This document shows positions 13,262 to 18,889 of a DNA stretch of 32,000 bases, piece after piece; the stretch's first letter is position 1; every line of letters starts with the position of its first letter. Origin of the DNA: an uncultured Psychromonas sp. (lineage in GTDB: Bacteria; Pseudomonadota; Gammaproteobacteria; Enterobacterales; Psychromonadaceae); the NCBI GenBank assembly GCA_963674525.2, contig CAXXRV010000016.1, positions 12,648-44,647 of the forward strand. The letters run 5' to 3'. The notes under the pieces were generated by a model, which did not search any database, had not been told where the DNA came from, and saw nothing but the letters and a program-made list of their open reading frames with translations. Both the position numbers and the translations under genes were made by a program.

Positions 13262-13427
13262 GGCGGCATAAATTTTTTGCACTATTAGAAATCTTCGAGC
13301 AGCGATATCAAGGAGAATGGCTGGAAGCGCAGTCTTTAGAGTGGTTATGTGTCATTTCCGTTTCTATTACCAATTAATAACTGAAATGACACAGATTTTT
13401 GAACGCCCTCCCGCCAGATGTTTTTAT

Positions 13428-13784
13428 TTATTCGCTGGCCTCCTCATCCATCGGCATCATTTCTTCTTCAGCCTCTTCATCCATCGGCATCATTTCTTCT
13501 GCCTCTTCAGTCATGTGCATCATTTTTTCTTCTGCTCCTTCAGCTGCATCAGTGATAGCGTCTTTTGCATCTTCAGCAGCTTCTTTGGCATCTTCAACGA
13601 CAGTAGTCGCTGCTTCAGTCATCTGATCCATGGCACCTGTTGAATCAGTATCCATTTCTTCTACTACGGCTTCAGGTTCACTGGCAGCATCTTTTGCCGC
13701 ATCGCCATTTTGATCGCATCCACTTAATAGCGCGATAGCCAATACAGAAGAGACAGCCATTGTTACACTTTTATAGTACTTCAT
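13428..13784 (-). CDS. Small acidic, Met-rich lipoprotein
   Basis: Signal plus lipobox (AIALLSGC). GAGGG lies about 8 nt upstream of the ATG. The mature part is D/E/A-rich and ends with three MM-x-M units (MMHMTEEAEE, MMPMDEEAEEE, MMPMDEEASE). Confidence 0.65.
   Translation of the reverse strand: MKYYKSVTMAVSSVLAIALLSGCDQNGDAAKDAASEPEAVVEEMDTDSTGAMDQMTEAATTVVEDAKEAAEDAKDAITDAAEGAEEKMMHMTEEAEEMMPMDEEAEEEMMPMDEEASE
13442..13534 (-). repeat. Three tandem ~30-33-nt coding repeats (MM-x-M-acidic units)
   Basis: cctcatccatcggcatcatttcttcttcag / cctcttcatccatcggcatcatttcttctg / cctcttcagtcatgtgcatcattttttcttctg. Confidence 0.8.
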
Positions 13785-14212
13785 AGTTTTTACCCTCGTC
13801 AGTTAAATTGCCTTATTAATTATAGTCAAAAATTAATATTTAGCGGTGCATATCAATTAAATAGACACTTTTTGAAAGGCCGCTAACAGCGGCAGGTTGC
13901 AATCAATCGGATACCGATGGCAACAGCAGCTGTTCTGTGAATGTTTATCATAATGATGGATAATCACTTTTTCATAGTGCCTGCTAAGGCTTTTTTCGCT
14001 AGCGCCAAGCCAACAGTGATTCGCTCAATGCAGGCTGAACAGAGCGGCGAGATAAATGAAAAAGCGGCAAAGGGAGATTGCTAATTTATGCGCGATAACG
14101 GACTGAGCATCAAGCTAAACGTCTCATTTTTGTGAAAAAAAAGCGATAGTAGTAGATCTGGTTTTAATATTTAAGCACCATATATGCAGGAAATATTCTA
14201 TGGAGGGAAGCT

Positions 14213-14947
14213 ATGAAAGCGGTGCATGCGCTATTTAAAGAGATGCTCGGAAGCTTGCGCGATCTTCTGCCGATAATATGTGTGATCGCTTTTTTCCAAT
14301 TAGTGGTTTTACAGGAGCCTCTGCCCAATATCCTGTCGATTCTTTTGGGACTTCTTTTTGTTGTTTTAGGTCTGACCTTTTTTATTTTTGGGTTGAATAT
14401 GGGGCTTTTCCCCATTGGTGAAAGCATGGCGCGCTCTTTTGCCAGCAAAGGCAGTCTCTTCTGGCTGATTTTATTCGCATTTTGTTTAGGCTTTGGCACT
14501 ACTATTGCCGAGCCGGCATTAACGGCTGTGGCGAGTGAAGCTGCCACAGTGGCTGCTGAAGGTGGCGTTATCCCGCAAACGGTTGAAGGAATGAACGACT
14601 ACGCCAACGGCCTGCGGGTGACGGTGGCGCTTTCTGTGGGCCTTGCGATTGTGATCGGTGTGGTGCGTATACTTAAGGGCTGGCCGATTCATATCATGAT
14701 CATTGCCGGCTACATTGGCGTCGTAGTACTGACCTGGTTTGCACCCGAAACTATTATCGGTATCGCCTACGACTCCGGCGGTGTGACCACCTCGACCATT
14801 ACCGTCCCGCTGGTAACCGCTTTGGGGGTCGGGCTAGCATCATCAATTAAAGGTCGAAACCCTATGTTAGACGGCTTTGGTTTGATTGCATTTGCCTCGC
14901 TGCTACCTATGATCTTTGTGATGCTTTACGGGATGATTTTATCATGA
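14213..14947 (+). CDS. DUF1538-family integral membrane protein (paralog A)
   Basis: Polytopic. Conserved blocks [11 protein letters not shown] and [25 protein letters not shown]...[16 protein letters not shown] lies 7 nt upstream of the start. Confidence 0.7.
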
Positions 14948-15738
14948 TAAGTCCACTGCAGTTTATCGATATGTTTATTAGTACCATGGTCGATGTTATT
15001 CCTATTGCCAGTATTATTTTTGTTTTTCAATTAGTGATCCTCAGGAAACCTATAGTAAATTTAAACAGAGTCGTGCTGGGTTTTTTTTATGTTATTTTAG
15101 GGCTGTCGCTTTTTCTATTGGGGCTGGAGTTAGCGCTTTTTCCACTGGGTGAAACCATGGCGGCGCAGCTTACCGCTCCCGAATTTCTTTACGCTTTTAA
15201 AGAGGACATTACAGAGTCCTTGTCCTGGATTGATTATTATTGGATTTATCTGTTCGCATTTGCTATCGGGTTTAGCACAACCATTGCCGAGCCTTCTCTA
15301 ATTGCGGTGGCGATTAAAGCCAATCAGGTTTCCGGTGGCGCGATCCGGGTTAATGGCTTGCGGGTTGCGGTGGCCTTAGGTGTCGCCTGTGGCATCTCCT
15401 TAGGGAGTTATAGAATAGTTGTTGGTGATCCTATCCATTATTATATTATGGTTGGCTATATTGTGGTGATTATGCAAACCCATTTTGCGCCAAAGCTGAT
15501 AATACCGCTGGCCTATGATTCGGGTGGTGTGACAACCTCGACGGTGACGGTGCCATTAGTCACAGCTTTAGGTTTAGGGTTAGCCTCCACCGTTCCGGGA
15601 AGAAACCCTGTTATTGACGGTTTTGGATTAATCGCATTTGCAAGTCTATTTCCAATCATTTCAGTCATGGCATACGCCCAAATTACTCAATGGTTAAACT
15701 CAAGAGCAGATTCTAAGGAGAAAGATAATGCGCTTTAA
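14944..15738 (+). CDS. DUF1538-family integral membrane protein (paralog B)
   Basis: Same blocks as paralog A ([47 protein letters not shown]). ATGA start/stop overlap with the upstream gene. Confidence 0.7.
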
Positions 15739-16078
15739 ATTAATAATTGCCTTTGTCGAGGATGCAAAGACAGATGCGGTTGTCGATGCGGCACGCTTGG
15801 CGGGCGCCACCGGCGCAACAGTGATCAATAATGCGCGCGGGGAGGGACTCAAGCAAAAAACCACTTTTTTTGGCCTGACTCTAGATGTGCAAAAAGATGT
15901 GGTGTTCTTTATGGTAGAAGAGCATTTATCGCGACAAATATTGGAAACAATTAACCAGGTCGGTGGCTTTGATCAGGAGTCGGGGCAGGGTATTGCCATT
16001 CAAATCGATATTGAAGACGCAGTCGGCGTGGCGCGTCAGGTAGAGACATTAACTAAAGTGGTAGAGGATGAGTTATGA
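15728..16078 (+). CDS. PII-like signal-transduction protein
   Basis: 116 aa with a PII-like layout: the [10 protein letters not shown] strand, a helix, a GATGATVINNARGEG strand followed by a T-loop-like segment, then a second beta-alpha-beta and GIAIQIDIEDAVGV. AAGGAG upstream. Overlaps the upstream gene by 11 nt. Confidence 0.6.
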   Translation: MRFKLIIAFVEDAKTDAVVDAARLAGATGATVINNARGEGLKQKTTFFGLTLDVQKDVVFFMVEEHLSRQILETINQVGGFDQESGQGIAIQIDIEDAVGVARQVETLTKVVEDEL

Positions 16079-16479
16079 GCCAGCATAAGCTTGTTAGAGT
16101 GAGAGACGTTATGGGTAATTCCTATGTCATGATTGATGGAGTTAAAACGGTGGAAGAAGGCATTCAGCTAGCACGAGAGCATGCCGTCAAAGCCTTAGTG
16201 GTGAATAAGCGACATGATAATGATGAATACGGCATCGTTTTAATGAATGATATTGCCAAAAAAGTGTTAGCGCGCAACCATTCCGTTGAGCGCACCAATA
16301 TTTATGAAATCATGACCAAACCGGCTTTATCTGTTGCCCCTGATATGGATGTGAAATATTGCGCGCGTTTATTTGAGCGCTTTGGTGTCAGCCGGGCACC
16401 GGTCATTGAGCATGGTAAGGTTATTGGTATGGTGAGTTACAATAATATTGTGCTCAACGGTATGGCATTGGATGTTTAA
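16075..16479 (+). CDS. CBS-pair domain protein
   Basis: 134 aa consisting of two CBS motifs (VRDVM...V.EG..LA.EH.VKALVV and IYEIMTKPALSV.PDMDV..CARLFERFGVSRAPV...GKVIGMVSY). ATGA overlap with the upstream gene. Confidence 0.8.
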   Translation: MSQHKLVRVRDVMGNSYVMIDGVKTVEEGIQLAREHAVKALVVNKRHDNDEYGIVLMNDIAKKVLARNHSVERTNIYEIMTKPALSVAPDMDVKYCARLFERFGVSRAPVIEHGKVIGMVSYNNIVLNGMALDV

Positions 16480-16515
16480 AACAGTAAAATAAAAAGTTTT
16501 TAGGAGAACCGAAAA

Positions 16516-17061
16516 ATGAAACTGTTTTTTGCTTCGGATCTGCATGGTTCATTGCCGGCAACAGAGCGAATGCTCAAAAAATATAAAGCGTCAGGTGCTG
16601 ATTATCTAGTGCTTTTAGGCGATCTATTGAATCATGGCCCGAGAAACCCGATTCCGCAGGGCTACCAGCCAGCTGCTGTTGCAGAGCTTTTAAATCAATA
16701 CAGCGATCAGATTTTGGCGGTGCGTGGTAACTGTGATAGTGAAGTTGACCAGATGCTGCTTAACTTTCCGATGCTGGAAAGCTATGCCTGGATATTGCTG
16801 GAAAAAGGTCAACGTATCTTTTTAACCCATGGTCATATCTATAATAGTGATAATCGCCCGCCGCTAAAAAGGGGAGATATCATCGCTTATGGGCATACAC
16901 ATATTCCTTTAGCTGAACAAAATGGCGAGCAGTTTATCTATAATCCGGGCTCGATTACTTTTCCTAAAGGGGACTATGTTGCCAGTTACGGATTGTACGA
17001 AGAAGGTCGCTTAAAAGTGCTGTCATTTTCAAATGAAATTTTGCAGCAGGTGAATATTTAA
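16516..17061 (+). CDS. yfcE: YfcE-type metallophosphoesterase (MJ0936 family)
   Basis: Near-collinear with E. coli YfcE as I recall it: FASDLHGSLPATER, LGDLLNHGPRN, RGNCDSEVDQMLL, LTHGH, YGHTHIP, NPGS...PKG. Confidence 0.85.
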   Translation: MKLFFASDLHGSLPATERMLKKYKASGADYLVLLGDLLNHGPRNPIPQGYQPAAVAELLNQYSDQILAVRGNCDSEVDQMLLNFPMLESYAWILLEKGQRIFLTHGHIYNSDNRPPLKRGDIIAYGHTHIPLAEQNGEQFIYNPGSITFPKGDYVASYGLYEEGRLKVLSFSNEILQQVNI

Positions 17062-17985: not shown

Positions 17986-18261
17986 ATGGTCTTAGTCAAA
18001 CGTTTAATGCTGGATATTCTCAAACCTCATCAACCCCGAGCATTAGAGTTTTGCTCTAAACTTGCTGAAGTCGGTGATGATTATGCGGTCAGTTTAACTG
18101 TGCGCGGCGTTGATGAGAAAACCGAAACTGTTGCCGTGTGTATTGAAGGTTATGATCTCAACTTTGCCGCAATACAATCTGCTATTTCCGATATGAGCAG
18201 TTCGCTGCATAGTGTAGATGAAGTGGAGGTGCGTAATGAGCGGAGTAAAAACGCCGAATAA
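17986..18261 (+). CDS. DUF211 (COG1888) family small protein
   Basis: RLMLDILKPHQP....F...L.....D..V.L.V..VDEKTETV.V.IEG.DL.F..I...I....SSLHSVDEV matches the DUF211 pattern as I recall it. Confidence 0.6.
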   Translation: MVLVKRLMLDILKPHQPRALEFCSKLAEVGDDYAVSLTVRGVDEKTETVAVCIEGYDLNFAAIQSAISDMSSSLHSVDEVEVRNERSKNAE

Positions 18262-18302
18262 CCCGTCGTTTTATCATTAACAGCAGCTTAAAGGAGTAGC
18301 AT

Positions 18303-18889
18303 GTGCTGAAACCCTTTACGCAAATCCATTTTTATCTGCAAATTACCCATTCTCAGGGAATAATACGGCGTTACTTTGTGGTTAATGGTTTCGATGGCGC
18401 GCTGACTATGCTCGGACTGATTATTGGTTTTCTGTTTAGTCCTCCTTCCAGTTTACAAATTATGATCAATGCCTGTATGGGCGCAACCATTGCCTTAGCC
18501 GTAAGCGGTACCAGCAGTGCTTTTGTCAGCGAACAGGCAGAGTTGCGTCTGGCTTTGAGCAACCTTGAGGATGCCATGATTACTGAGCTGCACAAAGGAG
18601 CCCATGCAGAAGCAACGCGCTGGGTGCCGCTTCTTATCGCGTTGGTCAATGGCTCAGCCCCGCTGATTATTGCATTGCTGATCATCGCGCCCTTATGGCT
18701 GGCGATGCAGGGGCTTACATTTATTCTTTCGCCGCTATACTGTGCCATTTGCATTGCCATCGTTATTATTTTTCTTTTGGTGTTTTCCTTGGCCGGCTAT
18801 CCGGCGTAACCTGGTTAATCGGCGGCTTTAAAACCTTGCTGATTGCAGCACTGACCATTGCTTTGATCTACTTATTAACCATTCAATAA
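18303..18889 (+). pseudogene. VIT1/CCC1-like (TIGR00267-type) membrane protein interrupted by a frameshift in a T-rich run near 18765-18782
   Basis: The frame-0 ORF (18303-18809) ends VIIFLLVFSLAGYPA*. The overlapping ORF in another frame continues FGVFLGRLSGVTWLIGGFKTLLIAALTIALIYLLTIQ*, which looks like the family's last TM helix. This could be a true pseudogene or a sequencing error. Confidence 0.55.

Follow-up and report, generated by a model that had tools for sequence, protein, structure and literature searches.

A UmpAB-type DUF1538 membrane pair encoded with a PII-like and a CBS-pair protein in Psychromonas: a candidate sensor-gated cation/proton antiporter

The function of DUF1538 membrane proteins has been addressed in one study, which assigned Na+(Li+, K+)/H+ antiport to the pair UmpAB of Halomonas zhaodongensis (Meng et al., 2017, Sci Rep 7:4221; PMC5484666). 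A 4.2-kb fragment of H. zhaodongensis DNA rescued Escherichia coli KNabc, tolerance to NaCl, LiCl and alkaline pH needed the co-expression of both overlapping DUF1538 genes, and UmpB was co-immunoprecipitated with UmpA, the pair being reported as a heterodimer (PMC5484666). In everted vesicles, pH-dependent Na+, Li+ and K+/H+ antiport was observed by acridine-orange dequenching, with an optimum at pH 9.0 and K0.5 values of 0.26, 0.46 and 0.41 mM for Na+, Li+ and K+, respectively, while vector controls were negative (PMC5484666). Here we analyse a four-gene operon that encodes two DUF1538 membrane proteins (hereafter A and B), a PII-like protein and a stand-alone CBS-pair protein, and that lies in a 32,000-nucleotide stretch of the genome of an uncultured Psychromonas sp. 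(assembly GCA_963674525.2, contig CAXXRV010000016.1, positions 12,648 to 44,647 of the forward strand; the whole stretch is called the window). The published umpAB clone stopped after umpB and the paper mentions neither a PII nor a CBS protein (PMC5484666), so that the sole functional study assayed the transporter without its co-encoded partners.

PII proteins are known to plug or lock transporters, as GlnK does on AmtB and SbtB on SbtA, and CBS domains are known as nucleotide switches on transporters (reviewed in PMC10710835). In the open-access PubMed Central and bioRxiv literature we found no description of an association of PII or CBS proteins with a DUF1538 pair. The initial annotation of the operon had taken DUF1538 proteins to be without assigned substrate or mechanism, a statement that is out of date, as the UmpAB antiporter was published in 2017 (PMC5484666) and NCBIfam models for it exist; it had also considered the whole module undescribed, which stands for the PII-like and CBS partners, found in none of the papers searched, and does not stand for the membrane pair (PMC5484666). 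What appears to be new is the conserved presence of the PII-like and CBS partners, the divergence of the sensor and the added CBS protein, the antiporter family of the membrane pair being already known.

The operon is on the + strand (14213-16479), and all its open reading frames (ORFs) are at the positions proposed in the initial annotation. It is composed of gene A (14213-14947), coding for an UmpA-type DUF1538 subunit of 244 residues, gene B (14944-15738), coding for an UmpB-type DUF1538 subunit of 264 residues with a hydrophilic C-terminal tail, the PII-like gene (15728-16078), coding for a protein of 116 residues with an isoelectric point of 4.5 that belongs to a DUF1538-associated subfamily, and the CBS gene (16075-16479), coding for a stand-alone CBS-pair protein of 134 residues. 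Reading the junctions base by base confirmed the overlaps from which tight coupling of the four genes had been proposed: A and B share four nucleotides (ATGA, 14944-14947), B and the PII-like gene share 11 nucleotides (ATG at 15728, TAA at 15736-15738), with a Shine-Dalgarno sequence, AAGGAG, 8 nucleotides before the ATG, and the PII-like and CBS genes again share ATGA (16075-16078), preceded by GAGGAT. The CBS gene is translationally coupled to the PII-like gene through this last overlap.

Searches with hidden Markov models supported all the family assignments of the initial annotation. The DUF1538 model of Pfam (PF07556) matched A at an E-value of 1.7e-70 and B at 2.4e-68, its 211 positions being entirely covered by both proteins; the Pfam P-II model matched the PII-like protein with 38.2 bits, above its gathering cutoff of 25, and the Pfam CBS model matched two stretches of the CBS protein, with 62.4 bits. 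A and B are paralogous, as had been suggested, with 50% identity and with the blocks TTIAEP(A/S)L and (I/V)TVPLVTALG(V/L)GLA present in both. The heterodimer that had been proposed from these shared blocks has been shown experimentally for the Halomonas homologues (PMC5484666).

Each membrane protein has its own counterpart in UmpAB. Against the NCBIfam equivalog models for UmpA and UmpB (NF041627 and NF041628), A scored best with UmpA (379.8 bits, and 184.7 with UmpB), and B scored best with UmpB (346.8 bits, and 209.5 with UmpA). Since the pattern is reciprocal, the A/B duplication is older than the split between Psychromonas and Halomonas. The four proteins are 64% (A), 58% (B), 60% (PII-like) and 52% (CBS) identical to those of H. 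alkaliantarctica, whose membrane pair is in turn 93% and 90% identical to UmpAB of H. zhaodongensis (PMC5484666). From these sequence relationships, we assign A and B as UmpA-type and UmpB-type orthologues, in adjacent and overlapping genes as in UmpAB; antiport was measured for the Halomonas pair only, and the activity of the Psychromonas pair is inferred from 58-64% identity.

The AlphaFold2 model of A is all-helical, with a predicted local distance difference test score (pLDDT) of 85 and a predicted template modelling score of 0.76. Its helices are broken at two invariant motifs, TTIAE/P (96-101) and YDSGGV/TTSTI/TVP (186-199), the slashes marking the breaks. Invariant acidic residues (E70, E100 in TTIAEP, D187 and D220) accompany clusters of threonine and serine residues at the unwound helix segments, and such acidic and Thr/Ser motifs at predicted helix breaks, present in both subunits, are typical of ion-coupled carriers. 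No solved structural relative of the DUF1538 model was identified (best Foldseek E-value 0.66), and a PDB sequence search with the membrane subunit gave no match. Aligning the N-terminal with the C-terminal half by hhalign indicated no internal repeat (probability <1%), and no weak link of DUF1538 to other transporter families of Pfam was seen at E-values up to 10.

The initial annotation had treated the four genes as one module, and their synteny bears this out. We scanned one genome per species and obtained 80 loci, whose A-type proteins share 62-97% identity with that of the window, the nearest (locus L001) at 97%; all four window proteins were mapped on the loci, and gene order was counted in the 74 loci whose sequence continues for 1.7 kb or more beyond A. 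The order A-B-PII-CBS, on the same strand, is kept in 67 of the 74, which places the arrangement far beyond chance. Five loci have A-B-PII without the CBS gene (L069, L071, L072, L076 and L079; three of them checked by eye) and two have A-B alone (L059, which was checked, and L067). The hosts are Gamma-, Alpha-, Zeta- and Deltaproteobacteria, a spirochaete and an Eiseniibacteriota metagenome-assembled genome (MAG), the Gammaproteobacteria including Vibrio, Aliivibrio, Photobacterium, Colwellia, Shewanella, Beggiatoa, Thiothrix and Wenzhouxiangella, and almost all of them live in marine, saline or alkaline habitats. The junctions are conserved as well: A and B overlap in 60 of 77 real pairs, B and the PII-like gene overlap in 44 of 73 and are at most 30 nucleotides apart in 67 of these 73, and the PII-like and CBS genes overlap by exactly 4 nucleotides in 62 of 67 loci, with a gap never larger than 1 nucleotide, even where the CBS protein is down to 36-50% identity. 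When all flanking ORFs were clustered, no further neighbour was conserved beyond lineage-local synteny.

We also searched with the relative most similar to UmpA and looked up the matches from Halomonas. In H. alkaliantarctica the genes follow in the order umpA (254 residues), umpB (263), PII (116) and CBS (140), and the same order is found in Halomonas sp. GFAJ-1 (Halomonas loci L085 and L089; PII of 116 and CBS of 139-140 residues), as well as in Nitrincola and Marinospirillum, while H. aquamarina has A-B-PII and no CBS gene. The Halomonas umpAB loci thus carry the PII and CBS genes downstream of the membrane pair, as the window does, and the module of the window and the characterised system are one unit.

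Some loci showed additional features. The apparent fusion of B and PII in L079 was discarded, as its ORFs read separately, B having 260 residues and a stop codon, followed by PII. In Nitrincola iocasae (L088, 5361-6744), a gene coding for a fused A-like and B-like DUF1538 protein of approximately 495 residues, 53% and 49% identical to A and B of the window, directly follows the four-gene module, and in Marinospirillum (L090, 6470-6744), a DUF1538 gene coding for approximately 501 residues begins around 1.1 kb beyond the module, from which three small genes separate it; split and fused versions of DUF1538 are thus close together in some genomes. The Wenzhouxiangella MAG, in which the CBS gene is missing, has a second PII-like gene (L069, 7934-8623, - strand), 37% identical to that of the window and convergent to the PII-like gene of the module. 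In two Halomonas loci, a gene for an NhaC-type Na+/H+ antiporter (PF03553) is present a few kb upstream of umpAB (L085, 1-918; L087, 1842-3188), which may be a coincidental clustering of sodium-cycle genes.

Outside this clade, DUF1538 genes whose products are 27-34% identical to A were found on plasmids and chromids of Clostridia and of Alphaproteobacteria (Methylocystis and Chelativorans). A P-II gene is directly downstream of DUF1538, often overlapping it, in all nine of these records, and a CBS gene in none of the nine (seven records were inspected gene by gene, and the two second-strain records from the match table only). The adjacency of DUF1538 and PII is kept amid otherwise unrelated neighbourhoods, including plasmids flanked by insertion sequence (IS) elements. 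Because the distant systems have PII in 9/9 and CBS in 0/9 records, the gene comparison points to the PII-like protein as the ancestral, family-wide partner of DUF1538 and to the CBS protein as a later, clade-specific addition in the proteobacterial and marine clade. The number of domains also co-varies: in Clostridia, two DUF1538 domains are fused in a protein of approximately 500 residues and the partner, of approximately 222 residues, has two PII-like halves, while Methylocystis and Chelativorans have a single PII gene after two separate DUF1538 genes. A fused transporter matched with a tandem PII argues for a physical partnership and against mere co-regulation.

The partner with the widest distribution is thus the PII-like protein. 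Its AlphaFold2 model, obtained from a shallow alignment, has the topology beta1-alpha1-beta2, a low-confidence loop (37-55), beta3-alpha2, a second loop, beta4 and a C-terminal helix. Foldseek retrieved GlnZ, GlnK, GlnB, SbtB and CPII, all with probability 1.0 and 20-26% identity, and no subfamily was preferred. With the single sequence, a PDB search returned nothing at E-values up to 1, while the family profile matched archaeal GlnK (Archaeoglobus fulgidus) at an E-value of 6e-6, SbtB at 0.5 and PstA (Lmo2692, 4rww) at 0.7. We counted residues from the profile alignment to A. fulgidus GlnK and from the columns over 73 family sequences. The glycines of the nucleotide cleft are invariant (G26, G29, G38, G40, G86 and G88), and the equivalent of Q39, which relates to Mg-ATP and 2-oxoglutarate, is variable. 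The T-loop is approximately 5 residues shorter than that of GlnK, and its tip, T46-F47-(F/L)48-G49-L50-x-L52, is nearly invariant, while residues 42-45 vary freely; a conserved tip amid variable flanks is as expected of a protein-protein interface.

The PII-like gene is linked to DUF1538 at every locus examined, and the clustering of flanking ORFs revealed no amtB, glnA or other nitrogen gene conserved nearby. From its sequence features, the protein can be placed in the PII superfamily and is not a nitrogen regulator of the GlnB/GlnK type. An exact look-up of the PII-like protein of the window gave no record, and a search of the full library with it gave 252 clusters (at 50% identity) at E-values up to 1e-10, many of whose representatives are tandem-PII proteins of 200-280 residues.

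Two of the library representatives deserve a remark of their own. P0360 (357 residues) has three PII-like stretches by phmmer and two P-II domains by Pfam, and may be a pseudo-trimer in a single chain; if so, it would speak for trimers in the subfamily. P0319 (211 residues), a truncated PII with a CBS part, was considered as a fusion and set aside, as it looks like an indel or an assembly artefact.

The CBS protein consists of a Bateman module and nothing else. Among solved structures it comes closest, by sequence, to the CBS domain of the cyanobacterial CBS-CP12 (5nmu), with an E-value of 1e-23 and an alignment over residues 7-127. In having a tandem CBS pair of approximately 130 residues, it is similar to the CBS switches of transporters (MgtE, CorB/CNNM, ClC and OpuA/OpuC), to stand-alone CBS-CP12 and to DarB. 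Unlike in MgtE, CorB/CNNM, ClC and OpuA/OpuC, the CBS pair is a separate polypeptide and is not fused to the transporter, and, unlike the known CBS switches in general, it is translationally coupled to a PII-like protein and is missing from the distant DUF1538 systems.

The explanation that we favour, and consider reasonably probable, is that the operon encodes an UmpAB-type cation/proton antiporter whose gate is controlled by a PII-like sensor of its own, to which the CBS protein adds a second sensor in one clade. The A/B heteromer would be a secondary transporter exchanging Na+, Li+ or K+ for H+, the activity known from the Halomonas orthologues. The marine, saline or alkaline habitats of most hosts fit such an exchanger. 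The PII-like protein would bind a small effector in its inter-subunit clefts, most likely reporting the adenylate state (AMP, ADP or ATP), and its conserved T-loop tip would dock on the cytoplasmic face of the transporter, locking or releasing it, by analogy with GlnK on AmtB and SbtB on SbtA (PMC10710835). The CBS protein, presumably made in fixed proportion to the PII-like protein by means of the ATGA coupling, would probably form a complex with it, or else give a second input, such as nucleotide or ionic strength, and lineages without the CBS gene would rely on PII alone. The logic of such a gate would be that a cation/proton antiporter that is electrogenic or consumes the proton motive force has to be shut in a de-energised cell. 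The sequences show the gene order, the coupling, the family assignments, the orthology to the umpAB locus and the divergence of the PII-like protein from canonical PII; that PII or CBS binds the transporter, which ligand is sensed and in which direction regulation goes is what we infer here.

The likeness to GlnK-AmtB and SbtB-SbtA consists of a small gene for a PII-fold protein that adjoins, and is co-transcribed with, that of a membrane transporter, and of a predicted T-loop with a conserved tip. The differences are that DUF1538 is an unrelated transporter family, that the T-loop is shorter, that the PII-like protein of the window has a C-terminal helix, and that the CBS component has no counterpart in those systems.

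Several observations weigh against the proposed gating. Known PII regulation concerns only trimeric transporters (PMC10710835), and UmpAB was reported as a heterodimer. UmpAB was active in E. coli without PII or CBS (PMC5484666), which means that activity does not depend on the partners. The assignment of antiport comes from one heterologous study, in E. coli KNabc, and is transferred across 58-64% identity; moreover, A and B score below the cutoffs of the equivalog models (380 against 490 bits for A and 347 against 500 bits for B). However, ten diverse relatives, with 353-400 bits, are likewise under the cutoff, so that the cutoffs let in essentially Halomonas-like sequences only, and the low scores reflect a narrow model and are no evidence for a different function.

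Other points concern the sensor. The AlphaFold2 model of the PII-like protein is of moderate quality (pLDDT 69). The residues that contact the ATP phosphates are gone: the equivalent of K90 is Ile or Val and that of R101 is Gly in 73 of the 73 sequences, and that of R103 is mostly Ala or Ser. None of the 73 matches the PROSITE-type PII signatures, neither the C-terminal pattern, [ST]-x(3)-G-[DY]-G-[KR]-[IV]-[FW]-[LIVM], nor that of the uridylylation site, Y-[KR]-G-[AS]-[AE]-Y, both of which are matched by the E. coli GlnB sequence, used as a control. In lacking these signatures and the uridylylation Tyr, the PII-like protein differs from the GlnK-AmtB and SbtB-SbtA systems. With K90, R101, R103 and the signatures missing, canonical ATP binding should not be assumed, and, judging from these residues, the ligand should not be taken to be ATP/2-oxoglutarate. 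The Halomonas tip also differs, being GILGM instead of TFFGL, although it retains the pattern hydrophobic-hydrophobic-Gly-hydrophobic. Finally, no natural fusion of DUF1538 with PII was found among the 150 best PII-like cluster representatives.

A bolder version of the gated antiporter is the following. A very large dedicated PII-like subfamily would gate a heterodimeric transporter of unknown fold, breaking the trimer-only rule, through a pocket without any of the canonical ligands of the ATP phosphates that perhaps senses something other than ATP/2-oxoglutarate, such as AMP or a cation, and in the marine proteobacterial clade an obligate PII-CBS pair would form a two-sensor gate. We regard this version as possible, though doubtful.

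That the DUF1538 pair physiologically moves another substrate (bicarbonate, ammonium or another ion or metabolite), with Na+/H+ exchange as a side activity and the PII-like protein, in the manner of SbtB and CPII, reporting the carbon/nitrogen or inorganic-carbon status, seems to us unlikely. The classical transporters with PII partners, AmtB and SbtA, carry NH4+ and HCO3- (PMC10710835), the PII-like model has CPII and SbtB among its best matches in structure, many hosts are chemolithoautotrophs (Beggiatoa, Thiothrix, Mariprofundus, Sulfurivirga and Thiohalobacter), and the known function comes from a single complementation and dequenching study in a heterologous host, with a broad specificity for Na+, Li+ and K+, while no solved structural relative anchors the substrate class. 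Nevertheless, the K0.5 values for Na+, K+ and Li+ are sub-millimolar (0.26-0.46 mM) and the vector controls were negative (PMC5484666), the module is equally common in heterotrophs (Vibrio, Psychromonas, Colwellia, Shewanella and Halomonas), and carboxysome, RuBisCO, glnA or amt genes are not conserved alongside. In structure, the PII-like protein is no closer to SbtB or CPII than to GlnK, and the profile match to SbtB, as given above, is poor.

We hold it improbable that the PII-like and CBS proteins are a pair of second-messenger receptors similar to DarA/PstA and DarB/CbpB, which would tie the antiporter to K+ and osmotic signalling by cyclic di-AMP (c-di-AMP) instead of to the adenylate energy charge. 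Firmicutes have two c-di-AMP receptors that consist of a binding domain only, one PII-like and the other a stand-alone CBS pair, each a small separate protein, and the composition here is the same; c-di-AMP controls the transport of K+ and osmolytes, the loss of the canonical ATP-phosphate residues leaves room for a different ligand, and a gene for a YfcE-type phosphodiesterase directly follows the operon in Psychromonas and Vibrionaceae. However, specific sequence similarity to these receptors was not found, since PstA is reached by the profile only at the E-value of 0.7 and neither DarB nor CbpB is among the PDB matches of the CBS protein at E-values up to 1e-3, and the linkage to yfcE is lineage-local. 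To our knowledge, most Gammaproteobacteria with the module are without diadenylate cyclases, and we know of no operon in which the DarA and DarB genes of Firmicutes accompany a transporter.

It is equally improbable that the PII-like and CBS proteins are linked to the transporter by co-regulation only and, though co-transcribed with it, signal to other targets, for instance enzymes or transcription factors. In favour of this, UmpAB works in E. coli in their absence (PMC5484666), canonical PII proteins have many targets, the CBS gene is missing in five loci and PII in two, and no fusion protein joins the domains among the 150 best representatives. Against it, DUF1538 and PII stay adjacent between Clostridia and Proteobacteria, where the membrane proteins are 27-34% identical, and in unrelated neighbourhoods including IS-flanked plasmids; together with the conserved start/stop overlaps and the pairing of a fused double DUF1538 with a tandem double PII, this is the pattern of subunits of one machine.

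The gated antiporter bears on how these proteins are annotated and studied. Pfam still names the family DUF1538, and the partners are called "P-II family nitrogen regulator", which wrongly implies nitrogen control. UmpAB-type antiporters have already been invoked for salinity adaptation, for example in cable bacteria, and the sole experimental study of the family left out partners that are conserved across phyla. If the gating proposed here is true, the PII-transporter paradigm, built on AmtB and SbtA, reaches cation/proton antiport and an apparently non-trimeric transporter, and the existing vesicle assay makes the regulation directly testable. Since DUF1538 has no solved relative, solving the complex would bring to light a carrier fold and a mode of PII docking that are both new. 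The association of the genes is robust; the concept is an extension of PII-regulated transport and not a surprise.

Upstream of the operon, a conserved region (14108-14212, + strand) contains an AT-rich inverted repeat, GTCTCATTTTTGTGAAAAAAAAGCGAT (14121-14147), the sequence TTTTAATATTT, and a palindrome, GAATATTC, that abuts the Shine-Dalgarno sequence GGAGGG. Aligned with Psychromonas and close Vibrio loci, the 428-nucleotide spacer upstream of A is conserved only over its last approximately 105 nucleotides. Of 82 loci, 14 have the element, all of them from Psychromonas or very close "Vibrio sp."; it probably serves as a promoter or operator in this lineage, and is not part of the family-wide module. 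Searches with Rfam for riboswitches or leader RNAs gave nothing at E-values up to 1 in 13400-16700, and nothing at the gathering threshold in the whole window.

Downstream, the gene for the YfcE-type phosphodiesterase (16516-17061, + strand; NCBIfam PRK09453, 262.7 bits) starts 36 nucleotides after the stop codon of the CBS gene and has its own Shine-Dalgarno sequence. We saw no convincing terminator between the two, and the yfcE-type gene is possibly co-transcribed with the operon. A phosphodiesterase beside two proteins of nucleotide-sensor type is suggestive, but the linkage is lineage-local, the gene being in this position only in 19 loci of Psychromonas and Vibrionaceae.

Further downstream (17986-18809), a DUF211 gene (COG1888, 91 residues) is followed by one for a membrane protein of the TIGR00267 family (168 residues), neither with a known function; they are another pair of a small soluble and a small membrane protein, and are also present downstream in L001. 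On the other side of the operon, the - strand (13428-13784) encodes a predicted lipoprotein of 118 residues with an LSGC lipobox, extremely acidic and rich in methionine, with MMPMDEEAEEE repeats, which may be a periplasmic metal-binding protein.

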